Source: a virus. From it: a stretch of 64,000 bases of DNA. Below, in pieces: positions 7,938-45,027 of this stretch (position 1 is its first letter; the number at the start of each line of letters is the position of its first letter). Position numbers and translations under genes: made by a program. The stretch lies in the IMG/VR virus record IMGVR_UViG_3300045988_106448. One strand, given 5' to 3'. The notes below the pieces were generated by a model. The model was not told where the DNA came from, made no database searches, and saw only the letters and a list, made by a program, of their open reading frames with translations.

Positions 7938-7938
7938 G

Positions 7939-8508: not shown

Positions 8509-8513
8509 AGGTA

Positions 8514-8540
8514 TGGCGGGGCGACCCGCCTTCCTTAAAA
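8514..8540 (+). terminator. hairpin ggcggg-gcga-cccgcc followed by a T-containing tract
   Basis: 6-bp GC stem directly after the stop of 7939..8508. It lies inside the 5' end of the tracked ORF 8499..9188, which argues for a later start for that ORF. Confidence 0.35.
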
Positions 8541-8546
8541 TTAAAA

Positions 8547-9188
8547 ATGATTATGTTATATGATGAAGAAACTACTATAAAGATTGTTCTTCGATGTTAT
8601 GAATATCTCCAGATTAGAATGCGGGTACAACCTCGTTCTATAAACATGAAGACTCAGCAGCATCAAAAGTGGGTGAAGAAGTTTATCGCTAAACTGCCAC
8701 CTTCTGCCGGGGCTGATTTTATTTGGGACTTTTTATTGTTTCAGTTTTATATGTACGCCCGGCAAACACATAAGCAACCCCCTCTATGCTCGTGGTTTTT
8801 AATGCAGGAAGCGTGGAGAAGATATGAAGAGTATGAAGAAGGAGCGTTTTATTATTCTCGACTGTGGGGGTCAGAACAGAAATTCAGTTGCCCCGTTAAG
8901 AGCCACACGTATACCCCGGTAAAGCAAGAAGTTTTAGATAAGGAAAGACTGAGAATGTCAAGAATTTCTGGACCGAATTTTTGTGTTGCCAAGTATGGGG
9001 AAAAGGCATACGTTGAAGGTAGTGAAATGTGTGATAAATGTCCTTTTGAAAAGACGTGTTACACGTTGTTTTGCAACGAGGGTAATTTGTATCACAAATT
9101 AGAACAACTTCCTAATGATGTTTCTGGGAACGTGAAGTTGAGACCCGTTAATTCAAGCATAGCAGATTATGGAGAAGAAGATTTGTAG
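8547..9188 (+). CDS. hypothetical Cys-rich protein (start revised to internal ATG)
   Basis: The tracked ORF 8499..9188 begins inside a terminator-like hairpin. The internal ATG at 8547 (MIMLYDEE) follows an A-rich leader. The protein has several Cys pairs (CDKCPFEKTC). Confidence 0.3.
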   Translation: MIMLYDEETTIKIVLRCYEYLQIRMRVQPRSINMKTQQHQKWVKKFIAKLPPSAGADFIWDFLLFQFYMYARQTHKQPPLCSWFLMQEAWRRYEEYEEGAFYYSRLWGSEQKFSCPVKSHTYTPVKQEVLDKERLRMSRISGPNFCVAKYGEKAYVEGSEMCDKCPFEKTCYTLFCNEGNLYHKLEQLPNDVSGNVKLRPVNSSIADYGEEDL

Positions 9189-9555
9189 CAAATGCGGACG
9201 TGAAAAGTACATCGTAAATAAAACGAAGTGCTTGTGCGATGAATGTAATTACAAGCGTTTGCACAATGGTTTGACACGATTTGAGATTGCCCGGCTACGG
9301 CAACAAGCCAAACCACCCAAGAAAAAGAAACCCACGGGTGAATTAGATCTCTTTAAAGAGATTTGGGCGGAACGCCCGCATATTTGTACCAAATGTGGGA
9401 AGCCTCTCGGTGCGACGTTAAAACCGATCTTTTTTAGTCACATAAAATCGAAAGGGGCTTACCCCGAATTGCGGTTAATGAAAACAAATATAGAACTCGT
9501 GTGTGCTGAATGTCATCAGATTTATGAATTTGGCTCACGGAAAAACTTACAATAA
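9169..9555 (+). CDS. HNH endonuclease (Zn-ribbon + HNH motif)
   Basis: 128 aa. CSKCG...CLCDEC zinc ribbon, plus HICTKCG....FSHIKSKGAYPELRLMKTNIELVCAECH, an HNH-type H-N-H arrangement. Lies upstream of TerL, as in HNH-assisted packaging systems. Confidence 0.6.
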   Translation: MEKKICSKCGREKYIVNKTKCLCDECNYKRLHNGLTRFEIARLRQQAKPPKKKKPTGELDLFKEIWAERPHICTKCGKPLGATLKPIFFSHIKSKGAYPELRLMKTNIELVCAECHQIYEFGSRKNLQ

Positions 9556-9567
9556 AAGATTACGTAT

Positions 9568-9963
9568 ATGGCATTATTAGATGATAATTTTAGCGCAGAC
9601 GTGTTAATGAGAATTTGTCGAATTTTAGGTGCACCTAAAGTGGCAGATTTAATAGACTTTCGGGAAGATGTACCTGAAGCACGTTTGAAGAAAGCGATTA
9701 ACGGGTTTACTGATAGACTGGAACAAAAGTTTAAATCTAAATTGTTCACGTTTAGGGATAGGGAAAAACAAAGCGTTATTCGCTATTTTATTGTTAGCTT
9801 TAAAGAAGGGGAATCAATAGAGGGGGAACCGATGATAATCATTAACGATTTCAAGGAGGGCATTAAGGCTGATAAGAATCCTGTGTTAGATTTACAGCTA
9901 GTTTATGACGATATAGAAGATCGTGATAAAGATATTGAGGATTTAAAATTTTTACTAAAATAA
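9568..9963 (+). CDS. hypothetical acidic protein
   Basis: 131-aa ORF. No motif recognised. Confidence 0.3.
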   Translation: MALLDDNFSADVLMRICRILGAPKVADLIDFREDVPEARLKKAINGFTDRLEQKFKSKLFTFRDREKQSVIRYFIVSFKEGESIEGEPMIIINDFKEGIKADKNPVLDLQLVYDDIEDRDKDIEDLKFLLK

Positions 9964-9970
9964 TTTTGTT

Positions 9971-10624
9971 ATGGACACAACAGTAAAGTACATTATTTGT
10001 GCCGATGTAGAGTCTGGTGGGCTCCCGAATAAGAACAAAAAGGCTTTTGACGATGTAGCACTCGCCGAGGTGGCTATGGTGGTAGTAGATTGTATTAATT
10101 TGGAAATTGTTACCGAATACAATGCGATTATCGCTCCTTATAAAGATGGGCTTGAATACTCTCCACAGGCTGAGGAAGTGCATGGATTGTCAGTTCAGCA
10201 CCTAACTGAAAATGGGGAAGACATCAAAACCGTGTACAAGGAAACGAAAGCCCTTCTCAAGAAATACGCCAATAAGAGAATAGGTGCTATTCTAGCCGGG
10301 CATAATTTTCAACTCTTTGATATTCCATTTTTTGAAGGTATGTTTGCCTTTAATAATGATGATTTGTGGGAATACGTGAAGTTTGTTGAAGATACCATGA
10401 AATTGAGTTGGTACCGGGGTTTGGAACAAGAGAATTACAAATTGGGAACGTGCTGTCGCAAAGAGGGTGTTGAATTGGTAAACGCTCACCGGGCGTTAGC
10501 CGATACCCGTGCGAATGCCGAATTACTTATCAAATATTTACAAATTTTCAGAGGGGACGGCGTGGCTAATACCGCCCCGGTTGAAGTGAAATCAAGGTTT
10601 AGAGAAACTTTTCAAATTGTGTAA
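9971..10624 (+). CDS. DnaQ-like 3'-5' exonuclease (DEDDh)
   Basis: Exo I: ICADVESGG. Exo II: AGHNFQLFDIPFF. Exo III: AHRALADTRANAELL. Confidence 0.7.
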   Translation: MDTTVKYIICADVESGGLPNKNKKAFDDVALAEVAMVVVDCINLEIVTEYNAIIAPYKDGLEYSPQAEEVHGLSVQHLTENGEDIKTVYKETKALLKKYANKRIGAILAGHNFQLFDIPFFEGMFAFNNDDLWEYVKFVEDTMKLSWYRGLEQENYKLGTCCRKEGVELVNAHRALADTRANAELLIKYLQIFRGDGVANTAPVEVKSRFRETFQIV

Positions 10625-10627
10625 GAG

Positions 10628-12727
10628 ATGATAAGATTTAATGAGGATGGGAAGCTGTCGCATAAGCAGCTTGACGCCGTTTTCAACACCACATTCAACG
10701 TCCTGGAGGCTCTCCCTACCAAGGCGTTGAATCAACTGTTGGACGGGTATGGCGGTGATGTCGATGAAATGATGAACGAGATATTTAAGCAAACGAATCA
10801 GGTGCTTAATTTAAACCATACCTTAGAAACCGAACGTCTTCAGTACGTTGATTGTCTTACGGAATCAATGGATGAAACGTTAAAGGTGAAATCTTACAAT
10901 TATTTCAAGACGACCATGCTGCCTTCCTTTAGACAAGGGTGGAGAAATTTAGAGTGGGGTAATATGGTGCAGTTATATCCTAGTAGTGCGTACCTTGCCG
11001 CTCGTTCACATGGAAAGTGTTTTATTGCGGGCACTCCAATTTTAATGGCAGATTTCACGGTTAAGAACGTGGAGGACATTTACCCCGGCATGGAAGTAAT
11101 GGGGATAGATTACACGCCTCGTAAAGTGCTTACCCGACATATAGGTGAGGGGCAAATGTTTAGGGTAGAACAAGAGAATGGCATCCCCTACGTGGTGAAT
11201 TTCTGGCACGTGATGTGTTTGTATGACACCAAGAAGAAAGCGTATGTGGAAATGCCGATGAACGAGTTTTATAAATACCCGGTAAAGAAGCAGCGTCGTT
11301 TTCAGGGGTATCGGGTATTTAGTCCGGACACACCAATCTTTGAAAAGAGTGATATTAGAGTGACTTGCATTGGTAGGGATTCTTATTACGGTTTCATGAC
11401 AGATGGTGATCATTTGTTCCAATTAGAAGATGGAACAGTGGTGCATAATTCTTACGAGTTTTGTTACGCCTTTCCATTGTGGAGGCTGTACACCTACAAA
11501 CGCCCCACGTTCATGAGGGCGGACACTCCCGATAATAAGAATCGTCAAGAAACTTGTATTATTACTAATACGGAAAAGTTGGGTAAGGAGCATATTGATA
11601 AAATTGCGGAGGAAATTAAAATTAATGATGCTCTAGGCTATCGTATTAACCCGAACGGAAAGGCGTCACTTGCTGCCACGGGTATAGAGGGGGAGAACGG
11701 TACGAAATTGCACTTGCGTGGAAAGGATGGGTTTATTCGTGGTTTGCACGTGGGGGCGGCGGTGAGCGATGACTTACCTGACGAATCCAGTATATACAGT
11801 TTGGAACAGCGTGAGAAATTGATTGATTTGTTCAACGGTACGATTTCACCTATTGTTGAGCCATACGGGTATAATCTTGTGGATGGAACCCCGTATCAAG
11901 AGAATGACCTTTACGCTAAGCTGAAAGAAGACCCCAAGTTTAAAGTATTCGAATACCCGGCAGTCTTTCCTGATGGACGTTTGCTCGCTCCCGACCGTTT
12001 CACGTTTAAGAAATTGATGGAGGAAAAACAATCATTGGGAACTATGGTGTTTAGCCGTGAGTATTTGGTTGTGCCAATCAGTGACGATAGTACGATATTC
12101 CCGTGGGAAATTCTTATGCGTAGCACGTATGGAATGGAAAAGTATATGTTAGTGAATAACATAGAATCTTTTCCTATTAAACTAGCCAAAGTAGTGATTG
12201 GGTGCGACTTTGCTGTTTCCGGTAACGTGGGGGCGGATTACACTTGTTATTCCGTTTGGGGTAAAGATTTGCTAGGGAATTATTATCTCCTATATATTTA
12301 TCGTGAAAAGGGGCTTTCTCATAACGAACAGTTGAATAAAATAATGCAGCTAGACCGTAGCTTTAAACCAAGCGAAATCGTAGTAGAAAATAACGGTTTC
12401 CAAAGCATACTTGCGGATATGGCACGTCAACAGGGTATTAGAAATATTACACCATTTACCACCACAGCCGGAAATAAGAAAGACTTACGTACTGGGTGGG
12501 TGTCGTTGGCAGCGTTGTTCGAGCGTGGGGCGATAAAATGCCCGTGGCATACCGATAGCCGTAAACAGGTCGAGCAAATGTTCGGGGAATTCAATAGTAT
12601 TGCATTTCGTCCGGACAAGGGAACGCTAGAAAGTATTAGCGGGCATGATGATACTGTGTCATCGGCGTTTATGGCTATTAACAAGTTGAGAGAGGGAACT
12701 ATTAGAGTAGTAGTAGATTCAATTTAA
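10628..12727 (+). CDS. terminase large subunit, interrupted by a mini-intein in Walker A
   Basis: Walker A is AARSHGK|S, split by the intein. The C-terminal RNaseH-like nuclease motifs are present (VIGCDFAVSGNVGADYTCYSV, GHDDTVSSAFMAI). Confidence 0.7.
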   Translation: MIRFNEDGKLSHKQLDAVFNTTFNVLEALPTKALNQLLDGYGGDVDEMMNEIFKQTNQVLNLNHTLETERLQYVDCLTESMDETLKVKSYNYFKTTMLPSFRQGWRNLEWGNMVQLYPSSAYLAARSHGKCFIAGTPILMADFTVKNVEDIYPGMEVMGIDYTPRKVLTRHIGEGQMFRVEQENGIPYVVNFWHVMCLYDTKKKAYVEMPMNEFYKYPVKKQRRFQGYRVFSPDTPIFEKSDIRVTCIGRDSYYGFMTDGDHLFQLEDGTVVHNSYEFCYAFPLWRLYTYKRPTFMRADTPDNKNRQETCIITNTEKLGKEHIDKIAEEIKINDALGYRINPNGKASLAATGIEGENGTKLHLRGKDGFIRGLHVGAAVSDDLPDESSIYSLEQREKLIDLFNGTISPIVEPYGYNLVDGTPYQENDLYAKLKEDPKFKVFEYPAVFPDGRLLAPDRFTFKKLMEEKQSLGTMVFSREYLVVPISDDSTIFPWEILMRSTYGMEKYMLVNNIESFPIKLAKVVIGCDFAVSGNVGADYTCYSVWGKDLLGNYYLLYIYREKGLSHNEQLNKIMQLDRSFKPSEIVVENNGFQSILADMARQQGIRNITPFTTTAGNKKDLRTGWVSLAALFERGAIKCPWHTDSRKQVEQMFGEFNSIAFRPDKGTLESISGHDDTVSSAFMAINKLREGTIRVVVDSI
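11018..11449 (+). mobile_element. mini-intein (Hint domain, 144 aa, no homing endonuclease domain) within the TerL P-loop
   Basis: Block A: CFIAGTPILMADF. Block B: VLTRH. Blocks F/G: GFMTDGDHLFQLEDGTVVHN, followed by the +1 Ser. Removing it restores Walker A as AARSHGKS. Confidence 0.65.
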
Positions 12728-12733
12728 AAGATT

Positions 12734-14314
12734 ATGAGTAAGAAAGTTGATGCCATTCTAAGCCCCACATTTGTCGAAGAAATGATGCGATTAGCATTCG
12801 CGAATAGAGAGTTCGCTAGGCTTGTCACGTCAAATATTGATTTAAGCAATTTCCCTAGGGAGTTAGGTGGCTGTAAAGCCATGTTAAAAGTATTGAATGA
12901 CAATATGAAGAACGGTCGCCATGCGACGTTCGGCATGGTTGAGATGGCTTATAGCAATAAAGAGGATGTCCTCAAAAAGATAAAGGATGTACAGGCGTTA
13001 CCCGTGCCAGAGGTAGAACCGATGGTGGATCAACTTGAAACCTTCCTAAAACGTCAGACGTTTGTTGCCACGCAACATGAAATTTCTGATATGTATAACG
13101 AAGGTAAACAAGAAGAAGCGATGGCGTTATTGGAGAAACGAATGATAGAAATCAATAGTTTCTCCCTAACTAAAGACAACGGGCAGTTTAGGCGTGTGTA
13201 CAGGGATTTTGATAAGAATATTAATACCATAGCCGCAAAAGCGGAAGACGAAACTCGTCGTTCGAAAATGCCTATCGGTATTACAACTATTGATGAGATT
13301 ACCGATGGGGGTATCCCCCGTCAGGACACGGTGTTAATGATCATGCGATCCGGTGTTGGTAAATCAACGGCGTTGAAATACATAGCGTGGTATAACACGG
13401 CGATAGCCCATAACCACGTTCTTCACGTGCAGTTAGAGGGTGGAGCGGATGAAGCGGTGGTAAAGTTTGACCAGATGATTGCCCATACCACCTATTCCAA
13501 AATTATGCGTGGTGATTTAACTGAGGAAACCCGGCTACGGGTGAAAGGGTTGATTAACCGGGCAAACCTTGTGAATAGTGATATTGACGTTTACGCCACG
13601 GAAGAGTTACTAGACCTCACGATTGGTGATCTAGTGCAGGTTATAGAGGATTACAAAAAGGAATACGGGTTTTACCCTGACCTCCTAACGTTGGATTCTA
13701 TAGACTTGTTATTGACGGGTGAAAGCCGCAAAATAGACTACGATCCCAACTTTATAAAATACCGCTTGCAAAAGTGTGCCCAACGGTTAAAAGATATTGC
13801 TAAGAAGTACGACATGGTTGTCGTGACAGCAACCCAAACCGGAGACGTGCCGTTTGAAGTATGGAACGATCCTAACCGGGTTATTACCCGTGCCAATACC
13901 GAAGGCGACCGTACATTGGTTAAGCCATTTTCATTCGTGTTAACGGGTAACGTTACGCTAGAGGAAGGAAAGAATAACATGATGCGGTTGTATTTTGATA
14001 AAATGCGTAATTACAAGAACAACGGTATTATAGTTAGAATTCCAACGAATTACGAGAATGGTTTCTTCTATGATATGGCACGTTCTTCTACATTGGAAAC
14101 CGTGTTGGACGTTTCAGCGTTAGAGAAACTAGAACGCCGGGGTAAAAATAAGGAAAGAGGGGTCAAAGAGGAGCGAGTAGAGATTCAACCGGGAGTGTAT
14201 GGCAGTAAGGTTGCCGACGGTGCGCCCGTGTCTAAAAGAGACTCTAGCGACGTTGTAGACGAACGTACCATGAAGGAATCATTTAAGGATTGGAATAAAC
14301 GCAATAGAAAATGA
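12734..14314 (+). CDS. DnaB-family replicative helicase
   Basis: RecA-like core LMIMRSGVGKSTALKYIAW....LHVQLEGGADE aligns with the DnaB Walker A and H2 region. N-terminal helical domain is present. Confidence 0.6.
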   Translation: MSKKVDAILSPTFVEEMMRLAFANREFARLVTSNIDLSNFPRELGGCKAMLKVLNDNMKNGRHATFGMVEMAYSNKEDVLKKIKDVQALPVPEVEPMVDQLETFLKRQTFVATQHEISDMYNEGKQEEAMALLEKRMIEINSFSLTKDNGQFRRVYRDFDKNINTIAAKAEDETRRSKMPIGITTIDEITDGGIPRQDTVLMIMRSGVGKSTALKYIAWYNTAIAHNHVLHVQLEGGADEAVVKFDQMIAHTTYSKIMRGDLTEETRLRVKGLINRANLVNSDIDVYATEELLDLTIGDLVQVIEDYKKEYGFYPDLLTLDSIDLLLTGESRKIDYDPNFIKYRLQKCAQRLKDIAKKYDMVVVTATQTGDVPFEVWNDPNRVITRANTEGDRTLVKPFSFVLTGNVTLEEGKNNMMRLYFDKMRNYKNNGIIVRIPTNYENGFFYDMARSSTLETVLDVSALEKLERRGKNKERGVKEERVEIQPGVYGSKVADGAPVSKRDSSDVVDERTMKESFKDWNKRNRK

Positions 14315-15357
14315 AATACGATAAGGATGCCATAATTGCTGAATTTAACCTTGTTAAGTTCGGAACCCAAGGTTGGTTGACCAACCGGAATATGGAATGT
14401 CCTTTTTGTGGAAGAACGGGTAAGTGGGGGATTATTTTTAACGAGAGCGGTATTGCAACGTTTCACTGTTGGAAATGCCCCCGCAAAACCTCCCTATACG
14501 AATTTCTAAAAAAGCTAAATAAAACCTCCCTAGCTAAAAAGACGTTTGTTCCAAACACGGCTAAGGACTTGGACAAGTGCCCTCGGCTTGATGCGGAAAT
14601 TCAAATGGATAAGGCAAATTGGATGGAAGAGGAAGAATCGGAAGAATTTAAAATTACCCCGGTTTCGTTGCCATTGAGGCTAAAACCTTTAGTTCACGAT
14701 GCTTATTTGGACGGTCGTGGTTTTAAGGAATGCCATTATAAAGAATTTGAACCCTCCTATACAGATTCACCGTTAAACCCCAAGTTGCAGAATTACATTA
14801 TCTTTAAGATAAAGATAGATGGCATTCCAGTGGCATGGTGGGCGAGAAGTAGAAATAGTAAGGAATGGCACAAGGCTAATCTGGAAGCGTATAAACGGGG
14901 AGAAGCTGATTTGGTTTTACGGTATAGAAACTCGGAAACGAATTTTCAGGACTTACTAGGCGGGTATGATGATATTATTGAAGGTAAAACGGAAACGGTT
15001 ATTATAGTGGAAGGTATCTTTGATAAGATAAATATTGATAACCTGTTAGGTCTTTCCGAGGTCGATGATATCAAATGTTGTTTCACGTTCGGTAATAATA
15101 TAGGGCGGGGGCAAATAGAGGCGATGCGCCGTAAGAAAGTTAAGACGGTTATTCTCTTATATGATTACGGCACGATAAACGAAAGTAAGGAAACGGCGTT
15201 TAGAATGAGAGATGTATTTGAGCAAGTGTACGTGACCGCTATACGGCAGGAGGGAGTTGATCCGGGTAATATTACGTTGGAATATTTAGAAGAAGTTTTA
15301 ACCCAAGCGACAGACCCTATAAACTTTTATGCGAATAAAGTGGAAGTAAAATTTTAA
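14311..15357 (+). CDS. DNA primase (Zn-finger + TOPRIM)
   Basis: N-terminal CPFCG....HCWKCPRK zinc ribbon. TOPRIM-like IIVEGIFDKI and LLYDYGTINE motifs. Confidence 0.55.
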   Translation: MKYDKDAIIAEFNLVKFGTQGWLTNRNMECPFCGRTGKWGIIFNESGIATFHCWKCPRKTSLYEFLKKLNKTSLAKKTFVPNTAKDLDKCPRLDAEIQMDKANWMEEEESEEFKITPVSLPLRLKPLVHDAYLDGRGFKECHYKEFEPSYTDSPLNPKLQNYIIFKIKIDGIPVAWWARSRNSKEWHKANLEAYKRGEADLVLRYRNSETNFQDLLGGYDDIIEGKTETVIIVEGIFDKINIDNLLGLSEVDDIKCCFTFGNNIGRGQIEAMRRKKVKTVILLYDYGTINESKETAFRMRDVFEQVYVTAIRQEGVDPGNITLEYLEEVLTQATDPINFYANKVEVKF

Positions 15358-15360
15358 GGT

Positions 15361-22041: not shown

Positions 22042-22711
22042 AGTTATTGGGTTGGTAGGTGTAATTGGTAGTGGAAAAAGCTATACTTTAAAACGTCTTA
22101 AAGAGGAGGCTTCCAACACCTCCAGATTATTTATAGAAGGTGACTTTAGTGAAGGTATTCGTCAATTTATCATGAACATTTACGTGGGTAATGACGTGCC
22201 GATAGATGTGAATGGTGGAGCGTATGCCAAATGGAAGGCACATCCTAATGAAATTGCGTTACCCGTGTTTAGAGATGATGCCGGGAATTTATCATGCGGT
22301 ACGATTACCGGGCGCAAACTACTTCAACGGGTTGGAGAGTACATGAAGGCGATGGCAGGTAATGACGTTTGGGCTAAGTGGACGAAGACAGACGTTATGC
22401 GGGCATATAACAAGGCTTGTCTGATTTACCCCACGGCTAAGATTGAAGAAATGACAATTACTTTCGGGTCGGTGCGTTTCTTATGTGAAGCCCAAGTGGT
22501 TTTTGACGTGGCAACCCTTACCGATAAAGAACCCGTGATTATCTTTTGCAACCACAAGTCAGATTCCTACGAGTTGAATGATCACGTTAGTGAAGCATTT
22601 GCTCGGCACTTTGTTGATTTGGGTTACAAGGACGGTCAAGACATTACCGCCGAGGTACGTAGATTATTATTAAATTCAGAAAAGGATGAAAGATTTTCTA
22701 GCATATCTTGA
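22031..22711 (+). CDS. P-loop nucleotide kinase-like protein
   Basis: N-terminal Walker A VIGLVGVIGSGKSYT, 226 aa. Size and context suggest a dNMP/nucleotide kinase. Confidence 0.45.
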   Translation: MKGKVIGLVGVIGSGKSYTLKRLKEEASNTSRLFIEGDFSEGIRQFIMNIYVGNDVPIDVNGGAYAKWKAHPNEIALPVFRDDAGNLSCGTITGRKLLQRVGEYMKAMAGNDVWAKWTKTDVMRAYNKACLIYPTAKIEEMTITFGSVRFLCEAQVVFDVATLTDKEPVIIFCNHKSDSYELNDHVSEAFARHFVDLGYKDGQDITAEVRRLLLNSEKDERFSSIS

Positions 22712-25700
22712 GAGAAATTTAATGGATTATACCCTGATATCAGATTACGTTGTTGATATCGGGGGTAAGACATTCGAGTTATACAAGCCCGCTCATGATG
22801 GAGCGTTATTCGATGACGACTTTAATTTCGTGGGGATTCCCGCTAATCCTGACCGGGCTTCGGTAGAGGAATCGTCTACGGAAACTGAATGTGATTTTTA
22901 CGCTTACCGTTTCGGTGGGGTGTGGTATATGCTACCACGAGGAAAAGAGAACGAGGTAAAATTGATTCGGTTAAAATACGTGGGTGCGGCACTTCAGGAA
23001 GTTCCTACACGGGTATTTCTGGGGGTGCATGGTCAGTACGAAATGATGTCCGGGTCAGGCACGTATAAAGAATGGTGCCAGAAGGCGAAGTTTTTAGGGG
23101 TTCACACGTTAGGTATCTGTGAGAAAAACAGTTTAGCCGGGGCGTTAAAATTCCAAACGGAATGTATCGCTGCCGGGTTAAAGAGCGTGATTGGAATGGA
23201 GTGCAGCGTGTATGATGAACCAAACGATTATGCTTTCACGGCTAAGGTGTACGCTCGCAATGAAAAGGGATGGAAGGACTTGTTGACAATAAACAAGTTT
23301 ATAAATTGTGACAATCCTAAATATATAGGAGTTGCCGACTTTCGGAATATTACTCGTGGCAATAATGATCTTGTGGTATTTTTAGACCCCAAGGCGTTGG
23401 ACTATGACAAGATTGGAATGTTGGGTATTGCGGGGATTACCAATTTATACCAATTAGACCCGGCTATATACACCGCCGAAAAGCGTGACGAGTGGTACTT
23501 GAAGAATCTTAAAAAGTTCTTTCATGACAAGTCGCTGACAGCCGTGGCGGCTATTGATGCGTGGTATTTGGATGAAGAATACAGTTGTATTCGACCTCGG
23601 TTACACAGCATGGGGAACACGATAGCCTATGCAAGTGAGAATCAGTATTTCAAATCAAACGATGAATACTTGTTAGAATTGTCAGAGTTATTCCCTAAAA
23701 CTGATGAAGGGTTCGAAATGGCGTATAACAAATTCATGGATGCGATAGACGTGTTGGAAAACGTTGCCGAGGCGATTACCTTTACCATAGACGTCAAGAA
23801 ACGCCACTTACCCCACTACAAAATGACAAAGGAGGAGGCGGCAGAGTTTGACAACAATGAGGATCTCTTTTGGTCTCTTATAGACAAGGGGCTTGAGGCT
23901 CATCCTGACTTAATTGAGGATTGGGGTGAAGAGGTTATTATGGAGCGTATTGAGAGGGAAGTGGGGGTTATAAAGCTAGGTGAAGCGATTGATTACTTTT
24001 TAATCACGTGGGACATTATCAATTGGTGCCACCGTAACGGTATCATGACGGGGATTAGTCGTGGGAGTGCCGGAGGTTGTTTGGTATCATATCTGTTGGG
24101 TATTACCAAACTTGATCCCATGCGGTATGACTTACTGTTCGAGCGTTTCTTGAATGCGGGTCGTGTGAAGGTTTCCCTACCTGATATTGACTGTGATTAC
24201 CCCGGTGAAGACCGTCCTCGTGTAAAGAAGTACATGGAGGAACGTTACGGGTGGAAACAGGTGTGTTCGGTAGGAACGTACAGTGCTCTACAATTACGTG
24301 CGGCTCTTAAAGCCTTGTCACGGGTGTACGGTTTGCAATTCAAGGACGTTAACGACATGATGAAGTTGTTTGACGTGAAAGACCGTAAGCCGGAAGACCT
24401 GTTTAAGATAGCGTGTGCCCACCCCGTTGTTAAACACTTTGTCAAGGAACACCCGGATTTGATTAACGAAGCGATGCTCGTGATGCCCGCACCGTTGGCG
24501 CAGTCTATTCATGCTTGCGCCATGATGGTATTCCCAGATGAAAACGATATGTTTAGATGGGTGCCTATTCGTAAACAGGGGGACGAGTACGTTACCGAAT
24601 GGGAAGGTGGTGAGATGGATGCAGCCGGGTTCTTGAAAGAAGACGTGCTAGGGGTGAAACAGTTTGACAAGTTTCAGGACATGGTACGTTTGATTAAAGA
24701 ACATGAAGGTGTAGACCTTGATATTTTTAGCGTGCCGTTGGATGACCCTGAAGTGTACGCCTATTTCCAAAATGGGTGGAATGAAGATAACTTCCACTTC
24801 GGCAGTAACGGGCTAACCGGGTATTGCAAGCAAATGAAGCCTGAAAATATAGAGGACTTGATTGCGGCTATATCCCTGTACCGCCCCGGTGCGATGGAGA
24901 ACAACTTCCATAATGAATACGTGTTGCGTAAGGAGGGCACTAACAAGGTAGAGTATTTCGTTGGTACGAAAGATATTCTTAAGAATACGTATGGAGTGTT
25001 CGCTTATCAGGAACAGATCATGCAGTTATGCCGAGAGTTAGGAGGGTTGTCATTGGTGGAAGCAGATGACGTGCGTAAAGCGATGGTGAAGAAGAAGTAC
25101 GAGGCGTTACAGCAATACAAGGAAAGATTTATTCCCTATTACCGGGATAACTACGGCGTTAGCCAAGAATACAGCGAGAAGGTGTGGGATGCCATTGACA
25201 AGGCTTCAACGTACTTGTTTAACCGTAGCCACGCCGCCGCCTATGCCATTACCGGATACATTTCCCAATGGATTAAGGTGCATTATCCGATAGAGTATTG
25301 GTCGGTAGCGTTTAAATACGCCCAAGACTTTGATTACCCCCGGTACATTGCGGAAATTAATAAGACGGGGGTCTGCACGGTGCGTCCTGTGGATATTAAC
25401 TTGTCGGCGTTGGATGTTACCATTAACTTTAAAGAAAAGGCTCTGTATTGGTCTATAACCGGAATAAAACAAGTAGCGGAAAAAGCCGCAACCCAAATTT
25501 TAAAAGAGCGTGAAGAGAATGGTGATTACTATTCGTTGGATGATTTCGTGGTTCGGCATAAATGGAAGGGTTCGGCGGTTAATAGCCGTATCATACGAAA
25601 CCTAATTTTAGCGGGGGCGTTTGACAAGTTGGAAAACGTGCAGGAACCTTCAGATCGTATTGATTTGTTGATTAATTTCTTAGGTTCTACTAATACCGAA

Positions 25701-26171
25701 ATTAAAGATGATGACCCGGTACTTGAAGGGGCTGACAAGCACATGGGAGATGCGTGGTGGTGGGCACTCATGCAAAAGAAAGTGTCCGGGTTGGCATTCT
25801 TTGATTATCGTGGCATTTACGAACGATACGGTGGGGGACAATTCCCGCCCGAGTACGTGTATTCTGAAATAGAGGAGTGTCAAGGTGAAACCCTTCCTAA
25901 CGGTAATCAGGTTATTGTAGCCGGGTTCGTTACGGAGTTTGAACTTAAGAAGACACGTAAGGGCGAAATGATGTGTAAAATACTGTTGGAAAATAATTAT
26001 GACTTCCTAGAAGTTATGGTATTCCAATCAGAGTTTGAAACATTAAGGGACTACCTGACCGGGCGTGGGGACATCATCATGCTGAATGGCTCGATAGCGT
26101 ATGATAAACGCAAGGAAGTAAACATTTTAAGGGCGAATTTCGAAACGAATATCGTCACTTTAACGTTATAA
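22686..26171 (+). CDS. dnaE: DNA polymerase III alpha subunit (DnaE-type, PHP domain)
   Basis: N-terminal PHP domain (FLGVHGQYEMMSGSGTY...HTLGICEKNSLAGALKFQ....LKSVIGMEC). Pol III alpha palm/fingers motif NRSHAAAYAITGYISQWIKVHYP. 1161 aa. Confidence 0.8.
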   Translation: MKDFLAYLERNLMDYTLISDYVVDIGGKTFELYKPAHDGALFDDDFNFVGIPANPDRASVEESSTETECDFYAYRFGGVWYMLPRGKENEVKLIRLKYVGAALQEVPTRVFLGVHGQYEMMSGSGTYKEWCQKAKFLGVHTLGICEKNSLAGALKFQTECIAAGLKSVIGMECSVYDEPNDYAFTAKVYARNEKGWKDLLTINKFINCDNPKYIGVADFRNITRGNNDLVVFLDPKALDYDKIGMLGIAGITNLYQLDPAIYTAEKRDEWYLKNLKKFFHDKSLTAVAAIDAWYLDEEYSCIRPRLHSMGNTIAYASENQYFKSNDEYLLELSELFPKTDEGFEMAYNKFMDAIDVLENVAEAITFTIDVKKRHLPHYKMTKEEAAEFDNNEDLFWSLIDKGLEAHPDLIEDWGEEVIMERIEREVGVIKLGEAIDYFLITWDIINWCHRNGIMTGISRGSAGGCLVSYLLGITKLDPMRYDLLFERFLNAGRVKVSLPDIDCDYPGEDRPRVKKYMEERYGWKQVCSVGTYSALQLRAALKALSRVYGLQFKDVNDMMKLFDVKDRKPEDLFKIACAHPVVKHFVKEHPDLINEAMLVMPAPLAQSIHACAMMVFPDENDMFRWVPIRKQGDEYVTEWEGGEMDAAGFLKEDVLGVKQFDKFQDMVRLIKEHEGVDLDIFSVPLDDPEVYAYFQNGWNEDNFHFGSNGLTGYCKQMKPENIEDLIAAISLYRPGAMENNFHNEYVLRKEGTNKVEYFVGTKDILKNTYGVFAYQEQIMQLCRELGGLSLVEADDVRKAMVKKKYEALQQYKERFIPYYRDNYGVSQEYSEKVWDAIDKASTYLFNRSHAAAYAITGYISQWIKVHYPIEYWSVAFKYAQDFDYPRYIAEINKTGVCTVRPVDINLSALDVTINFKEKALYWSITGIKQVAEKAATQILKEREENGDYYSLDDFVVRHKWKGSAVNSRIIRNLILAGAFDKLENVQEPSDRIDLLINFLGSTNTEIKDDDPVLEGADKHMGDAWWWALMQKKVSGLAFFDYRGIYERYGGGQFPPEYVYSEIEECQGETLPNGNQVIVAGFVTEFELKKTRKGEMMCKILLENNYDFLEVMVFQSEFETLRDYLTGRGDIIMLNGSIAYDKRKEVNILRANFETNIVTLTL

Positions 26172-34551: not shown

Positions 34552-36528
34552 ATGAAAAAGTCAGAAATAAAAGAATTACGTGAAACTTTGATAGGGCTAA
34601 ACGAAGCCTATCGGGAAGGCGAACCATTGGTATCAGATTTAGAATATGATGCGCTCGTGGAGCAGTTGCGTGACGCATCTCCTAACGATGAGTTTTTCAC
34701 TAAAGGTATTGTCGAAGAGGCTACCGATCGCATGGAGAAGTTACCGTTACCCATGTACAGTCTTGAAAAGATAAAGACTATTAAAGACCTGTGCAAGTGG
34801 TTACAAAAGATGAAGGCTGCTGGGAGCGAAATGGTTGTGTTGATGCCCAAGTTTGACGGGATCAGTTTATTATGTAATGAAACTGATTCTGGAATGTTTC
34901 AAGCATGGACACGTGGCGACGGGGTAGAAGGGCAACGTAGCGACGCTCATTTTTCGCACATGGATAATGGAATATTGGAGGTTGAACACACATCCATGCA
35001 CACGTGGGGGGAAGCCATAATGCCCAAGATAACATTTTCGCATTTAAAAGAGAACGCTTCAGATTTTACTTATAAGAACGCCCGTAATATGGTAGCAGGA
35101 ATGTTTAATTCTCCTACCGGATGGCAGAACAGTTATATCATGGATGTTGATTACGTTCGTTACGGGTGTGATTTACCAGAAGACAAGAATCAACAGCTTG
35201 TAAAGTTGCGTTCTGAATTTGATAACGTGTCAGATTCAATAGAGGTGGAAATTGACAAGCTGTTGTTAGCCGCCACGAATAATTTATTAAGTGATTTCAT
35301 TGATAACACGGCTTATCCTAGATTCAATAAGAAATACAAGATTGACGGTATCGTGTTTGAAGTGAACGAGTATGCCGTTAAGGAAAAGCTAGGACGCCTT
35401 CCTAACGGCAACCCGGCATACTCCATAGCTTTCAAGCGTGAAGAATGGTGTGACGTGTATCAAACACGTGTTGATCACATAGAATACGGGGTTGGTAAAA
35501 CGGGCGTCATTAACCCAGTTATCATCATAGAGCCGGTAGAGATGGACGGGGCAACCGTTAGCCGGGCAACCGCCTACAACATGAATCAGCTTATGGAGCG
35601 GCACATTTGCCGAGGGGCGTTAATTGAAATTATCCGGTCAGGCGACGTTATTCCTAAGCACTTGCAAACGTTAGAGTACAACGATTGGCAGTACGAAAAG
35701 ATGATGGATGAAATAACCGAGTGTCCGTCATGCGGTAAGTTGTTGCATTGGGATGAGAATCATGTACACATGGTTTGTAAGAACCCCTATTGCAAGGAAA
35801 GACGCATCAGTGAAATAGTGTACTTCTTCCGCACGTTAGGGTGTGAAGAGTTTGCAGAACCTACCGTTCGTAAGATGTTTGATGCCGGGTGGATTACCGA
35901 GTTATCAATTCTGGAAGCGTCTAAAGAACAGATGCAAGAACTTTTAGGAGATGCCACGGGGGCAACCGTGTTCGACCAAATTGGAAAAGTGGTTAATGGA
36001 GGAATTCCATACGCCCGTGTGCTGACAGCCTCTAACGTGTTTGGAGGGGTAATCGCCGAAACGTTGTGTCAAAAAATCATTGACGGGTTGCCAGAGGATT
36101 ATCAACAGTGGTTAGAAACCGGGCTACCGTTAGAAGGGGTTAACGCTCGTCAGCAATTGATAGATGCCATTACTCAAATAAAGGGTATTGGAGAAGCGTA
36201 TGCCACGGCATTTGTTCACGGATTACACAAGTTCCTATTGAAACCGTACCGAAGTTTGTTCTTGATTTCCTATTTCTCAAGCACGGGTGTCGTTCCGGTG
36301 GCTGAAAATCAGATGCACGTGTGCATGACCGGGTTTAGAGATAAACAATTGGAGGAAGCGTTGAAAGCCCAAGGACACGTCGTGTTGAACGGTGTAACCA
36401 AGGAATGCGACGTGTTGGTAGTGAAAGACCTGAATAGCACGTCATCCAAAATGACAACCGCTAAACAACGAGGAATCCGAATCGTAACTAGGGAGGAGTT
36501 TGAACGTGAGATATTGGTACAAAAATAA
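34552..36528 (+). CDS. ligA: NAD-dependent DNA ligase (LigA)
   Basis: N-terminal Ia domain (LRETLIGLNEAYREGEPLVSDLEYDALVEQLR). Adenylation motif MPKFDG. CPSCG...C Zn finger. HhH region. C-terminal BRCT-like segment. Confidence 0.85.
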   Translation: MKKSEIKELRETLIGLNEAYREGEPLVSDLEYDALVEQLRDASPNDEFFTKGIVEEATDRMEKLPLPMYSLEKIKTIKDLCKWLQKMKAAGSEMVVLMPKFDGISLLCNETDSGMFQAWTRGDGVEGQRSDAHFSHMDNGILEVEHTSMHTWGEAIMPKITFSHLKENASDFTYKNARNMVAGMFNSPTGWQNSYIMDVDYVRYGCDLPEDKNQQLVKLRSEFDNVSDSIEVEIDKLLLAATNNLLSDFIDNTAYPRFNKKYKIDGIVFEVNEYAVKEKLGRLPNGNPAYSIAFKREEWCDVYQTRVDHIEYGVGKTGVINPVIIIEPVEMDGATVSRATAYNMNQLMERHICRGALIEIIRSGDVIPKHLQTLEYNDWQYEKMMDEITECPSCGKLLHWDENHVHMVCKNPYCKERRISEIVYFFRTLGCEEFAEPTVRKMFDAGWITELSILEASKEQMQELLGDATGATVFDQIGKVVNGGIPYARVLTASNVFGGVIAETLCQKIIDGLPEDYQQWLETGLPLEGVNARQQLIDAITQIKGIGEAYATAFVHGLHKFLLKPYRSLFLISYFSSTGVVPVAENQMHVCMTGFRDKQLEEALKAQGHVVLNGVTKECDVLVVKDLNSTSSKMTTAKQRGIRIVTREEFEREILVQK

Positions 36529-40577: not shown

Positions 40578-41003
40578 ATGGAAAAAGTAGAAAAGCAAAC
40601 CCCGGCGGATTTATTCGTGATGATCCCAAGGGTGAAACAAATTACACGGGAGAAGAGTAAAACGACTTTCACACTGCTGAAATGTGCCAACATTCCACAA
40701 TTCGAAGGTGTCCTTCCTACTAAGGAAATTTTACAAACCCATTTTGCAACCCAACGGGTGAAAATGGAGATTGCCAAAAGGGATAAAACAGAATACATAC
40801 CTCAACCCTTGTATCTTGAAATAGAAAGTGGTATATTTGTAGAGTTAATGGAAGCCATTAACAAAAAACAACCACAATTTAAATCAGCAAGTGACGGGCA
40901 TAGTATTTGTTTAACTTTAGGAAATAATATGCCGTGTTGCATAATGCTTCCCCAACAGGAAGCAAAAGAAGTTTGTAATGAACCTTTAAAAGAAGAAGAA
41001 TGA
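40578..41003 (+). CDS. hypothetical protein
   Basis: 141-aa ORF. Confidence 0.3.
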   Translation: MEKVEKQTPADLFVMIPRVKQITREKSKTTFTLLKCANIPQFEGVLPTKEILQTHFATQRVKMEIAKRDKTEYIPQPLYLEIESGIFVELMEAINKKQPQFKSASDGHSICLTLGNNMPCCIMLPQQEAKEVCNEPLKEEE

Positions 41004-43345
41004 TTACAGTAGACAGTAGACCCACCGTGGGAGAGTATATCTTTTTAAGCAAGTATTCTCAGACCTTTGGTGGTAAAAAGGAAACATGGAACCAAGCGGT
41101 TAACCGGGTTATGAATATGCACGTCAAGCAATATCGTAACCGGATAAAGCCGCAAGATATGCCCGAATTTTTAAGCCTGTTCGAAAAGGCTTATAAACTG
41201 TACCACGATCAGCGCATTCTGGGGGCGCAACGTGCGTTGCAATACGGGGGTGAGTTAATGACCGAGAAGGTCGCTCGTTTTTACAATTGCACGATGTCCC
41301 ATTGTAACCGGGTAGAATTCTTTGAGGAAGCCATGTATCTCCTATTATGCGGTTGCGGGGTTGGGTATAGCGTGCAGAAGAAACACACCGAACAGCTACC
41401 CGTGCCGAAAGGATTTAACCATACCGTTCCAAACGAAAAAGTTGTATGTCCTGACACCATAGAAGGATGGGCGATGTGCGTGGGCACGTTGATGAAGGCG
41501 TATTACTACGGTGATGCCGAACCTGACTTTGACCTTTCCCTAATTAGGAAGAAAGGGGCTTACATACGTGGGGGATTTCGTGCTCCAGGACCGGAACCTC
41601 TTCGTCAGGCTTTGGATAAAATGAAAAGTATCTTAGTGAAGATCAAGGGGCGCAAGCTAACACCGTTTGAACTCCACTATTTGATTTGCATATTTGCCGA
41701 TAGTGTTGTGACCGGGGGCGTGCGTCGTAGTGCGATGATAGCCTTGTTTGACGCCGATGATAACGAGATGGCTACGTGCAAGACGGGCAGTTGGATGAAT
41801 GAAAAGAAAGAATTATGCCGTAGCAATAATTCGGCTGTGATTCTTCCTAACACGCCCAAAGAATTGTTTGATAAAATATTCAAATCCACCAAGGCATACG
41901 GGGAACCGGGCTTCGTGTTCTTGGATGATCCAGATTACGCCGTGAATCCCTGTGGGGAAGTTGCCACCCTACCCATGTTCTTCGATCAGGAAACCTGTGA
42001 ATGGAAGTCCGGTTGGGGATTCTGTAACCTTGCGGAAATCAACGGGGGTAAAGTTAAAACGGTGAAAGACTTCCATGAAGCCTGTGAAGCCGCCGCCGTG
42101 ATATGCACGTTGCAGGCAGGTTACACGAATTTCAAGGTATTGTCACGGTGGTCACAGAAGATTGCCGAGCGTGATGCCCTCATTGGAGTGGGAATCACGG
42201 GGTTATGTGAGAATCCAGACATTTTATTTGATCCGGACGTTCAGCGTGAAGGGGCTGAAATCGTGGTGGCGACTAACAAGAAAGTGGCAGAACTTATCGG
42301 CATTAACCCGGCGGCACGATGCACGGTAGTGAAGCCGTCCGGTAATAGTTCACAATTGTTAGGAACTCTATCTGGGATAACACCGGGGCACGCACGTCAT
42401 TACATTCGGCACGTGCAAGCCGCCGATACGGAACAGGCGTTGCAAGCGTGGGAAGAAACCAATCCAGAATGCGTTGAACCTAGCGCATGGGCACCCGACC
42501 GAGAGAAAGTATTGGCGTTCCCCGTTACCCTCCCTAAGAACGCTTTATTGAGAGAAAATCTTTCCGCCGTGGAGTTCTTGAAGTTGGTGTTATTAACCAA
42601 GAACAATTGGATAGAATACGGAACCAACTTCGATCACCCGCAAACTCAGTACAACCCCAAACTTAGAATGAACGTTTCCAACACGTGTACCGTTAAGGAA
42701 CACGAATGGGACGAGGTACGTGAATTCCTGTGGGCACATAAAAGTGAGTTCGGCGGGGTGAGTCTTCTTTCCTACTACGGTGATTTGGACTACCCGCAAG
42801 CCCCTTATACGGAAGTTCTTGATGAACATCAATTGGCTGAACGTTACGGTGCGGGTGCGATTCTTTCAAGTGGTTTAGTAGTGGATAGTAAAGACGTGTT
42901 CAAGGACGTGTGGGAAGCCTGTAACGCTGCGATGGGATTGGCTCCTAAATTGCTTGAACTGACAGACAAGGAGATTAGCGAGTTCATCGTTAAGCACATC
43001 AAGAACGGTAAGTTCCTAATGGAGATTGACGGCGTGTGCTTCTCTGATGTTAATTGCGTGGTGGATCACTTGCGTCACAAGGTGGAAGCACGTCTGGATT
43101 GGATTCGTAGGTTCAACAGTTTCGCAGAGAAATACATGGGTGGAGATCGGCAGTTAACCGCCTACTGTTTGAAACACGTGAACGCATACCACAAGTGGCA
43201 ACACATTTGTCGTTTCCAGAAGGTGGACTATTCTAACATAGTTTGGGAGCAACCGTTGAAGGAAGCGGGCAGTGAGATTGCAGCGGCGTGCAGTGGCGGC
43301 GTCTGCGAATTTCTCGCCCCCCCCAGAAGTGAAATAAATTGGTAA
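41000..43345 (+). CDS. ribonucleotide reductase large chain (likely class II, B12-dependent, monomeric type)
   Basis: Active-site NPCGEVATLP and CNLAEING motifs. C-terminal Cys pair (CSGGVCEF). No obvious ATP cone, and no NrdB-like partner in the window. Confidence 0.65.
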   Translation: MITVDSRPTVGEYIFLSKYSQTFGGKKETWNQAVNRVMNMHVKQYRNRIKPQDMPEFLSLFEKAYKLYHDQRILGAQRALQYGGELMTEKVARFYNCTMSHCNRVEFFEEAMYLLLCGCGVGYSVQKKHTEQLPVPKGFNHTVPNEKVVCPDTIEGWAMCVGTLMKAYYYGDAEPDFDLSLIRKKGAYIRGGFRAPGPEPLRQALDKMKSILVKIKGRKLTPFELHYLICIFADSVVTGGVRRSAMIALFDADDNEMATCKTGSWMNEKKELCRSNNSAVILPNTPKELFDKIFKSTKAYGEPGFVFLDDPDYAVNPCGEVATLPMFFDQETCEWKSGWGFCNLAEINGGKVKTVKDFHEACEAAAVICTLQAGYTNFKVLSRWSQKIAERDALIGVGITGLCENPDILFDPDVQREGAEIVVATNKKVAELIGINPAARCTVVKPSGNSSQLLGTLSGITPGHARHYIRHVQAADTEQALQAWEETNPECVEPSAWAPDREKVLAFPVTLPKNALLRENLSAVEFLKLVLLTKNNWIEYGTNFDHPQTQYNPKLRMNVSNTCTVKEHEWDEVREFLWAHKSEFGGVSLLSYYGDLDYPQAPYTEVLDEHQLAERYGAGAILSSGLVVDSKDVFKDVWEACNAAMGLAPKLLELTDKEISEFIVKHIKNGKFLMEIDGVCFSDVNCVVDHLRHKVEARLDWIRRFNSFAEKYMGGDRQLTAYCLKHVNAYHKWQHICRFQKVDYSNIVWEQPLKEAGSEIAAACSGGVCEFLAPPRSEINW

Positions 43346-43413: not shown

Positions 43414-45027
43414 ATGGACATTAAAGTATTATTTGACGATTCAGCCCGTGAAGGCTTGTATGAAGGGGTGAAACAAATTACCCGTGCCGTGGCTTCTACA
43501 CTCGGACCGAAAGGACACACGGTTATCATTGATAAAGGTTATGGCATTCCCCACGTGACCAAAGACGGGGTAACGGTGGCTCGTGCCTTTGATACGGATG
43601 ACACCGTGGCTCGCATGGGTGCAACCCTCGTTAAGATGGCAGCCGCTAAAACGTGTGACGAAGCCGGAGACGGTACCACTACCGCCACCATTCTTACGGA
43701 AGCTCTCATACGGTTAGGGATGGAAAAGATGCACCTCGTGAAAAATCCACAACAATTTAAACGAGGAATTGAACGTGCTTGTGAAGAGGCGGTAGCCTTC
43801 ATTGACAATTTGAAATATGAAATCGATCCTACGGATTTTACCCGGTTAGAACAAATTGCTACCATTTCAGCGAATGGAGACGTGGAGATAGGAAAGGTAA
43901 TTACCGGGGCTATTCAACAAGTGGGCAACGATGGGATCATCACCGTGGAAGAAGGTGATAACTCTTCTGAGATAACGGTTGATATCACGACAGGATTCCA
44001 ATGGTCAAAGGGGCTTGTCAATCCCTATTTCGTAACCGATCGAGAACGTATTGAATGCGTGTTAGACAATCCATACGTTCTAATACTAGGGCAGAAAGCC
44101 AATTACCCGCAAGAAATTCTTCCGGTGGTTCAAACCGTGTACACCGCTAAACGTAGTTTACTTATTGTCGCTCCAGACGCCTCTAACGACGTCATAAAGT
44201 TCCTCGTAACGAACATTGCCAAGGAAAACGGGTTAAAGGCTTGCTTCGTTAAAGCCCCCGGCTATGGACAGGTTCAGAAGGATATGTTGGAAGACCTAGC
44301 CGTGAAGATGGGCGGTAAGGTGGTTGGAGGGGAATCCGCTCAAACCATTGAACAACTAGGTACAGATTGGTTAGGTGAATGTGATAGAGCGGTTGTCACC
44401 TCTACTCAAACCACCCTAGTTGGAGGGGCGGGTACCGAAGAGGAAATTCAAACCCGTGTCAAGGCTATCAAGAACCAGATTGATGACACCTCTAACACCT
44501 TTGATAAAGAGAAGTACCGTGAACGCATTAGCAAGTTAACCGGGGGAGCCGCCGTGATACACGTTGGAGCCACTAGCGAGGTTGAGATGAAGGAACGCAA
44601 AGACCGAGTAGACGATGCCATAGCCGCCACACGTGCAGCCATTGACGAGGGCTACGTGCCGGGTGGAGGTATGATGCCATATCAGGCAGCACAATATCTA
44701 ACGGGTTGGACAACCAATACCACGGAGGATGAACGTGTGGGAATTGAAGTGGTAATCGGGGCTTTACGTGCACCTTTCCGTCAATTGTGCATGAATGCCG
44801 GGGTAAACCCTGATAAATACGAAGCGGTAATAGAAACCAAAATCGGAAGTGAGTGGCGCAAGGGGATTGACTTTTCTTCCATGTGCATCGTGAATTTGTT
44901 TGAGATTGGGGTAATTGACCCCGTTAAGGTTACACGCCTTGCGTTGCAGAACGCCGTGAGCGTTGCCATACAGTTCCTAAATACTTCGTGTGTTATGGCT
45001 GAGCCGCCTAAAGACAAGAAGTCATGA
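43414..45027 (+). CDS. groEL: GroEL-type chaperonin (Cpn60)
   Basis: 537 aa, collinear with GroEL: ASTLGPKGHTVIID, DGVTVARAF, AGDGTTTATILTEALI, the apical domain, then a C-terminal hydrophobic tail. Confidence 0.9.
   Translation: MDIKVLFDDSAREGLYEGVKQITRAVASTLGPKGHTVIIDKGYGIPHVTKDGVTVARAFDTDDTVARMGATLVKMAAAKTCDEAGDGTTTATILTEALIRLGMEKMHLVKNPQQFKRGIERACEEAVAFIDNLKYEIDPTDFTRLEQIATISANGDVEIGKVITGAIQQVGNDGIITVEEGDNSSEITVDITTGFQWSKGLVNPYFVTDRERIECVLDNPYVLILGQKANYPQEILPVVQTVYTAKRSLLIVAPDASNDVIKFLVTNIAKENGLKACFVKAPGYGQVQKDMLEDLAVKMGGKVVGGESAQTIEQLGTDWLGECDRAVVTSTQTTLVGGAGTEEEIQTRVKAIKNQIDDTSNTFDKEKYRERISKLTGGAAVIHVGATSEVEMKERKDRVDDAIAATRAAIDEGYVPGGGMMPYQAAQYLTGWTTNTTEDERVGIEVVIGALRAPFRQLCMNAGVNPDKYEAVIETKIGSEWRKGIDFSSMCIVNLFEIGVIDPVKVTRLALQNAVSVAIQFLNTSCVMAEPPKDKKS

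Follow-up and report, generated by a model that had tools for sequence, protein, structure and literature searches.

In a 64,000-nucleotide stretch of viral DNA (IMG/VR record IMGVR_UViG_3300045988_106448; the whole stretch is referred to here as the window), the gene for the terminase large subunit, TerL, very probably carries a true class-1-type mini-intein that belongs to the PI-SceI/Prp8-like, 'Hom_end-associated Hint' family and interrupts the Walker A motif in frame, between Lys130 and Ser275. The terL open reading frame (ORF; 10628..12727, + strand, stop codon included), assigned from the ORF listing and from matches to phrog_38 and Terminase_6C, has 699 codons and encodes a precursor of 80.2 kDa. 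The insert comprises 432 nt, or 144 codons (11018..11449, +; precursor residues 131–274; 16.9 kDa), and is recognized by Pfam, by its AlphaFold2 (AF2) model, by Foldseek and by the gap that replaces it in relatives. Read from the DNA and its translation, it starts with TGT (Cys131, 11018-11020) and ends with GTG CAT AAT (V-H-N274) at 11449; the next codon, TCT (11450..11452, +), encodes Ser275, which from the sequence and an alignment of 17 TerLs (A1) is both the last Walker A residue and the presumptive +1 nucleophile of the C-extein (GK/S, the slash marking the insertion point). The boundaries proposed in an initial annotation of this DNA are exact to the base, and the block A sequence CFIAGTPILMADF and the C-terminal ..DGDHLFQLEDGTVVHN/S that it named are both in place.

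The N-extein (residues 1–130; 10628..11017, +; delimited in A1) ends in the N-terminal part of Walker A, the seven residues A124-A-R-S-H-G-K130 (10997..11017, +; read from the sequence), and the C-extein (residues 275–699; 11450..12724, +) contains the remainder of the ATPase domain and the RNase H-like nuclease domain. Removal of residues 131–274 in silico yields a 555-residue protein of 63.3 kDa with the junction ..YLAARSHGK-SYEFCYAF..; the masses of about 80 kDa for the precursor and about 64 kDa for the spliced product given earlier are close to those computed here. The insert and the exteins have the same G+C content (0.431), so that there is no compositional hint of a recent foreign origin.

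Host protein and Walker A assignment

Among PHROGs, the host ORF matched phrog_38, 'terminase large subunit' (E 3e-46), and in Pfam it matched Terminase_6C (E 5.7e-11; residues 524–686; 12197..12685, +), which bears out the naming of the gene in the initial annotation. The phrog_38 match covers residues 280–690 of the precursor (159 bits) and, in the protein spliced in silico, residues 67–546, running across the junction (177 bits, E 2e-51). A profile of intein-free relatives matched the TerL nuclease domains 5tge and 5m1f and the ATPase domains of T7 gp19 (4bij) and P22 TerL (8dgc). In the T7 gp19 alignment, the profile stretch 'lasrssGksyelsyafplwrly' pairs with Walker A, '..vvaDDlpde..' with '..iiADDV..' and 'GTPyse' with 'GTPQTE'. 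The Walker A stretch by itself scores weakly (2.8 bits) and is colinear with the significant stretch covering Walker B and motif III. Two further ATPase elements can be placed accordingly in the window: a Walker B-like segment, AAVSDDLPDE (residues 377–386; 11756..11785, +), with D381, D382 and D385 invariant, at the 'iiADDV' region of T7 gp19, and motif III, or C-motif, G420-T-P (11885..11893, +), at 'GTPQTE'. No ATPase-domain family exceeded the Pfam threshold, including in searches with the protein spliced in silico, in which Terminase_6N starts at the Walker A motif with a weak score (E 0.097). On these matches, the host ORF is a T7-like TerL, with a predicted N-terminal ATPase domain and a predicted C-terminal RNase H-like nuclease domain. 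No second terL was found in the window.

The sequence A124-ARSH-G129-K130/S275 fits the pattern [AG]x4GK[ST]. R126, G129 and K130 are invariant in A1, and the +1 position is Ser or Thr in 17/17 of its sequences, intein or no intein. The initial annotation described the motif restored by removal of the insert, AARSHGKS, as a perfect Walker A; the pattern does fit, with Ala instead of Gly at its first position.

Intein-free relatives at the same site

The comparison of TerLs drew on the best 120 of about 1,200 homologues. A search with the spliced protein retrieved TerLs of 550–562 residues that are 58–66% identical over 96–100% of the query and have no Hint domain. The ten intein-free homologues in A1 show one clean gap, which corresponds exactly to residues 131–274 and falls between GK and S/T; they read ..LA[AS]R[SAG][HS]GK[ST][YF][EQ].. 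without a break and without any other change at the junction. The string R-x-x-G-K-[ST]-[YFW]-[EQ] is continuous in 25/27 intein-free matches. Because intein-free TerLs lack exactly this segment, it is not a TerL subdomain. The initial annotation had stated that its proposal would fall if the segment proved to be a normal part of TerL in intein-free relatives, and the alignment gives the opposite result.

Family, fold and catalytic residues

Pfam assigns the insert to PF05203, Hom_end_hint (50.4 bits against a cutoff of 32.1, E 3.8e-13), and a phmmer search of solved structures with the insert matched the PI-SceI and Prp8 inteins. A family profile built from 22 relatives aligned to PI-SceI (E 2e-17) over the N-terminal 54 and C-terminal 31 residues, bridging the PI-SceI endonuclease, and to Prp8 inteins (E 2e-14) through block B. 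Block A (CFIAGTPILMADF; 11018..11056, +), with the putative nucleophile Cys1, aligns with CFAKGTNVLMADG of PI-SceI, and blocks F and G (YYGFMTDGDHLFQLEDGTVVHN; 11384..11449, +), with Asp129, the penultimate His143 and the terminal Asn144, align with ..YYGITLSDDSDHQFLLANQVVVHN. The pattern in this C-terminal alignment is ..YYG..D.DH.F.L....VVHN, and the block F/G region of the insert pairs with ..DHQFLLANQVVVHN of PI-SceI. Block B is N61-F-W-H64 in intein numbering (11198..11209, +) and lies within query residues 1–73 of the Pfam and Prp8 alignments. The initial annotation was right that a block B is present, but had called it TxxH-like; the motif is NxxH, which fits the (T/N)xxH of class-1 inteins.

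An AF2 model of the insert, computed from the family alignment, is a single, compact, all-beta domain (mean pLDDT 96.1, pTM 0.88). The top Foldseek match in the PDB is the Cryptococcus Prp8 intein 6mx6 (E 1.7e-13, TM-score 0.85, 26% identity over about 140 aligned residues). PI-SceI domain I also matches closely (E 6e-11, TM-score 0.83); the gp41-1, DnaB, DnaE, RecA and GyrA inteins rank next, with bacterial intein-like (BIL) and hedgehog Hint domains more distant. All of the top 50 PDB matches have the Hint fold (intein, BIL or hedgehog Hint), and the best are nearly all inteins. The profile matches, the predicted fold and its structural neighbours thus uphold the earlier call of an intein-type Hint domain. 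A BIL domain was considered and ruled out. Such domains occur in variable and frequently secreted proteins, within regions that are not conserved; they usually lack the canonical combination of HN and a +1 nucleophile, and they cleave rather than splice. The insert, by contrast, interrupts the best-conserved motif of an essential enzyme and ends in HN/S; its TM-scores are 0.65–0.69 with BIL domains, lower than the 0.85 with Prp8 and the 0.83 with PI-SceI domain I.

Conservation was assessed in 84 distinct mini-intein sequences from relatives, which span about 55–100% identity. Invariant among them are C1, T6 and M10 of block A, N61 and H64 of block B, and G125, F126, D129, D131, H132, H143 and N144. 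The insert holds every catalytic residue of a class-1 intein, Ser being the predicted +1 nucleophile.

When 1.84 billion representatives were searched exhaustively, related Hint domains turned up in 5,378 proteins. Outside this TerL cluster, the closest of these domains are no more than 36–45% identical and are parts of DnaB helicases, of a PIF1-like helicase and of other proteins. Occurrence in so many proteins makes the element part of a large and widespread intein family.

Endonuclease-free and full-length alleles

No endonuclease domain was found in the 144-residue insert: Pfam returns Hint families only and the AF2 model is one compact Hint domain, as the initial annotation had held. Its length falls within the range of about 130–200 residues that marks a mini-intein. 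Among the retrieved clusters with an intein at the GK/S site, 119/122 have mini-inteins of 138–144 residues and 3/122 have full-length forms of 345–356 residues. The full-length forms carry LAGLIDADG motifs (PF14528, PF05204), located in about 205 extra residues in the loop after residue 101. The linker of the window mini-intein (EFYKYPVKKQRRFQGYRVFSPDTPI) is longer and aligns to residues just upstream of the first LAGLIDADG motif in the full-length forms. A sister TerL lineage has three alleles at GK/S, in flanking DNA that is 96–98% identical: an empty site in contig L005 (protein P0121, 554 residues), a 138-residue mini-intein in L004 (P0105) and a 349-residue full-length intein in L003 (P0106). 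At both ends of the splicing domain, the P0105 and P0106 inteins are about 94% identical at the nucleotide level. P0105 lacks a LAGLIDADG core of about 650 nt and has further small gaps and an unalignable junction of about 60 nt. With several gaps in the middle and this unalignable stretch, P0105 is not a simple deletion derivative of P0106. Another TerL relative, P0143 (906 residues), has at the same site a full-length intein that ends ..DGTIVSN/S; here Ser replaces the penultimate His, a natural block G variant.

The initial annotation left it open whether homing activity had been lost or had never been present. Judging from these alleles, the endonuclease was probably lost, the mini-intein descending from a LAGLIDADG-bearing intein at the same site. 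Loss is favoured because full-length LAGLIDADG alleles occupy this site in related TerLs, in one case within near-identical sister DNA; for the lineage of the window itself, this falls short of proof.

A second intein site lies in the C-motif of TerL, between nt 11887 and 11888 (G420/T421, 'VDG/TPY'), and is empty in the window. Two contigs that are about 98% identical to window positions 7633-15727 (L001 and L002) have an exact insertion there (4261-5523 in L001), a LAGLIDADG intein of 1263 nt or 421 codons (PF14890 and PF14528; CVAPDT...IVSHN/T). Within one phage type, a full-length C-motif intein that is presumably competent for homing is thus present in some genomes and absent from others. 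Beyond the GK/S site, no other intein and no free-standing LAGLIDADG gene was found in the window when six-frame fragments of at least 60 residues were compared with the mini-intein HMM and the second intein of L001.

Selection and inheritance

Compared with L001, the intein has 16 synonymous and 1 non-synonymous differences (ratio of non-synonymous to synonymous rates, dN/dS, 0.013), and the exteins have 33 and 1 (dN/dS 0.008). The intein is under strong purifying selection. Across 118 intein-bearing TerLs, pairwise intein and extein distances are correlated (r = 0.95), the intein evolving about 1.5 times faster, and among the matches listed every TerL with at least 70% extein identity has the intein. 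This is the signature of an intein that is fixed in the clade, vertically inherited and kept functional, the last because failed splicing would inactivate an essential gene.

Synonymous divergence from L001 is about twice as high in the intein (16/85.5 sites) as in the exteins (33/348.3 sites; Fisher p = 0.02). The difference could be due to chance, to different codon constraints or to phages that circulate together exchanging their intein alleles.

Predicted splicing and dependence of the packaging ATPase

Established intein chemistry suggests the following course. TerL would be translated as an 80-kDa precursor with a split ATP-binding loop. The Hint domain would fold and promote an N–S acyl shift at Cys1 (Cys131), and Ser+1 (Ser275) would then attack the thioester, giving a branched intermediate by trans-esterification. 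Cyclization of Asn144 (Asn274), assisted by His143 (His273), would release the 16.9-kDa intein, and an O–N shift would form the K130–S275 peptide bond, leaving a 63-kDa TerL with the contiguous P-loop AARSHGKS.

In the precursor, 144 residues separate Lys130 from Ser275, the pair expected to contact the ATP phosphates and Mg2+, and the precursor should therefore be inactive as a packaging ATPase. It is a sound inference, made already in the initial annotation, that the packaging ATPase depends on splicing; only spliced TerL should hydrolyse ATP and package DNA. Lacking an endonuclease, the intein cannot home by itself and persists by vertical descent, because an essential gene would be knocked out by any mutation that weakened splicing and by any deletion that was not precise.

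Alternative explanations

There is next to no chance that the segment belongs to TerL itself as an ordinary subdomain of this lineage, with no mobile insertion involved. Its fixation in all close relatives found (at least 70% extein identity) would suit such a subdomain, but relatives with 58–66% identity lack exactly these 144 residues at an otherwise unchanged junction, which already refutes the idea; moreover, one sister lineage has empty, 138-residue and 349-residue alleles in near-identical DNA, and the same Hint family occurs in DnaB and PIF1 helicases and many other proteins. It is very improbable, too, that the insert is a decayed Hint remnant that no longer splices, left in a dead terL or in a TerL that tolerates 144 residues in its P-loop. 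An intein without an endonuclease has reached the point in the homing cycle where decay would be expected, and splicing is here a prediction from sequence. However, a decayed remnant would not be expected to show a dN/dS of 0.013 or invariance of Cys1, N61/H64, D129, H143, N144 and the +1 Ser/Thr across the 84 mini-inteins. Nor would the sole terL found in the window be expected to be dead in a phage that recurs as contigs of about 100–118 kb in many samples, and a P-loop broken between Lys and Ser is, from what is generally known of Walker A motifs, unable to bind nucleotide.

Regarding its history, the mini-intein might never have had an endonuclease, the full-length alleles being products of a later LAGLIDADG invasion of its loop. 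We regard this as possible but unlikely. Minis make up 119/122 of the retrieved intein-bearing clusters, the other three, which are full-length, all fall in a diverged subtype, and the endonuclease lies in a loop between strands that are intact in the mini-intein model (residues 95–101 and 107–128), so that the alignment fits insertion as well as deletion. Yet the Hint family is endonuclease-associated and the nearest solved relative is PI-SceI, the comparison of P0105 with its 94–97% identical full-length partner looks like decay after loss, and window-type and P0105-type minis differ in linker length. A further proposal accepts splicing and supposes that the intein has been co-opted as a conditional post-translational switch, responding to redox, temperature, DNA or procapsid cues, that times the packaging ATPase. 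Its long persistence in endonuclease-free form, with purifying selection nearly matching that on the exteins, would agree with it, as would a position in the P-loop that offers all-or-none control, and conditional splicing of P-loop inteins has been proposed in literature cited by Kelley et al. (PMC5050341). The present data fit simple entrapment in an essential site equally well, and intein-free relatives in the same phage family function, so that the intein is dispensable for TerL function as such; we consider the switch improbable. Slightly less probable again is its most specific form, in which the endonuclease-less intein has long been kept in the clade as a domesticated switch, with splicing gated by Cys1 redox, procapsid or DNA engagement and the ATPase active only late in infection. 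Should a switch exist, gut-phage TerL, with its coexisting alleles and polymorphic C-motif intein, would be a natural system for the homing cycle and exaptation.

Several observations weigh against the reading that we prefer, a splicing mini-intein in the P-loop of TerL that has probably lost its endonuclease. Splicing is predicted from the intact catalytic residues and the dN/dS of 0.013. The Walker A assignment rests on the sequence pattern, conservation and the weak colinear T7 gp19 alignment, and the AF2 model of the intein-free homologue P0121, computed from too shallow an alignment, is unreliable in the ATPase domain (pLDDT <50 for residues 63–339). The mini-intein of P0105 and the full-length form of P0106 differ by more than a single clean deletion. 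Finally, the retrieved clusters include no full-length, endonuclease-bearing form of the subtype of the window intein, and the full-length alleles belong to a diverged subtype at a distance of about 60%.

Phage context and significance

Megablast found nothing that matched the terL gene among 50,697 phage records, indicating that the phage has no close cultured or deposited relative. The nearest deposited-phage TerLs are those of an unannotated human faecal contig (57.6%) and of the B. thetaiotaomicron phages DAC19-23 (36.7%, intein-free). TerLs that are identical or nearly so turn up in many samples, on contigs of 100–118 kb, and there are more than 100 homologous clusters on phage contigs of about 100–120 kb. 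The source is an uncultivated phage with a genome of about 113 kb. Its host is likely to belong to the Bacteroidota; the nearest matches of its DnaE-type Pol III alpha (22686..26171; 1161 residues, without an intein) are 30–39% identical and come from phages of Tenacibaculum, Cellulophaga, Chryseobacterium and Bacteroides.

An RNase T-like exonuclease gene (9971-10624) lies immediately upstream of terL, and genes for a DnaB helicase (12734-14314) and then a primase (14311-15357) follow directly downstream. The window also encodes an NAD-dependent ligase (34552..36528), a ribonucleotide reductase (41000..43345), a GroEL chaperonin (43414..45027) and an SNF2 helicase. The position of terL is unusual: it lies among replication genes (9971..15357), not beside portal and capsid genes, and this order is kept in L001–L006. 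About 1 kb upstream of terL, a Cys-rich ORF of 128 residues (9169..9555, +) has a borderline HNH match (PF01844, 20.4 bits against a cutoff of 21.4) together with zinc-ribbon matches. It could be a free-standing homing endonuclease; HNH proteins encoded beside terminase genes are known packaging accessories. An antisense ORF of 126 residues lies inside the intein (11042..11422, −). The 98%-identical contigs keep it open, but four stops interrupt it in the 79%-identical L006, so that it probably does not represent a gene.

For annotation, the TerL of this abundant uncultivated phage family is a 555-residue protein interrupted by an intein. If the intein goes unrecognized, TerL phylogenies and filters based on length or domains will be distorted. 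The finding adds a Bacteroidota-type gut phage lineage to the phages whose packaging motor is expected to depend on protein splicing. Its most useful by-product is an unusually complete natural series, with empty, mini and full-length P-loop alleles and presence or absence of the C-motif intein in 98%-identical genomes, which could serve for work on how inteins are gained, lose their endonuclease and become fixed. Protein engineers, too, may take an interest in a natural 144-residue mini-intein flanked by Lys at −1 and Ser at +1. The current understanding of inteins is unchanged.

Comparison with known systems

Among proteins of solved structure, PI-SceI, from VMA1 of S. cerevisiae, gives the best match in sequence, with alignment over blocks A, F and G, and it belongs to the same Pfam family, PF05203. 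It differs in being a 454-residue protein with a LAGLIDADG endonuclease and a DNA-recognition region, encoded in a eukaryotic nuclear gene and in another host protein, whereas the window intein is a 144-residue splicing core. The +1 residue of PI-SceI is Cys. The Prp8 mini-inteins of Cryptococcus neoformans and C. gattii (6mx6, 6mwy) are closest in fold and similar in size, and the crystallized forms lack an endonuclease. Their host is a eukaryotic spliceosome factor and the homology is remote only; block B is TxxH in the Prp8 intein and NxxH in that of the window.

Among phages, the mycobacteriophages are reported to carry inteins in TerL more often than in any other protein (Kelley et al. 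2016, mBio, PMC5050341). The inteins there splice efficiently, and TerL1-a, between the P-loop Lys and Thr, is the 'classic' insertion, for which splicing is required for ATPase activity (PMC5050341). The initial annotation had suggested comparing the insertion site with known terminase inteins, and the Lys/Ser insertion in the Walker A motif of the window TerL does match this P-loop site (PMC5050341). The likeness is one of site, an insertion between the invariant Lys and a Ser or Thr that serves as the +1 nucleophile. The window TerL is T7-like with Terminase_6C, whereas mycobacteriophage TerL is of the Terminase_1 type; the window phage is of gut type with affinities to Bacteroidota phages, whereas TerL1-a occurs in actinophages; and the +1 residue is Ser instead of Thr, in an endonuclease-free intein of the PF05203 family. 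The polymorphic second site in close relatives of the window also has a counterpart, since the TerL6-f intein lies in the C-motif, the ATPase coupling motif (Kelley et al. 2016, PMC5050341). In gut phages, the TerL of the Delta group of crAss-like phages typically has an intein and sometimes two (Yutin et al. 2021, PMC7886860), which makes these gut-associated TerLs with one or two Hint inteins comparable to the present one. The crAss inteins were found through their endonuclease domains ('Hint-Hop' type), however, and the C-motif site of the window is empty; the nearest TerL matches of the window phage are the unannotated faecal contig and Bacteroides phages DAC19-23. The element is thus of a known kind at a known kind of site, and differs from earlier examples in its T7-like TerL lineage, its phage group, its PI-SceI/Prp8-like intein family and its endonuclease-free state.

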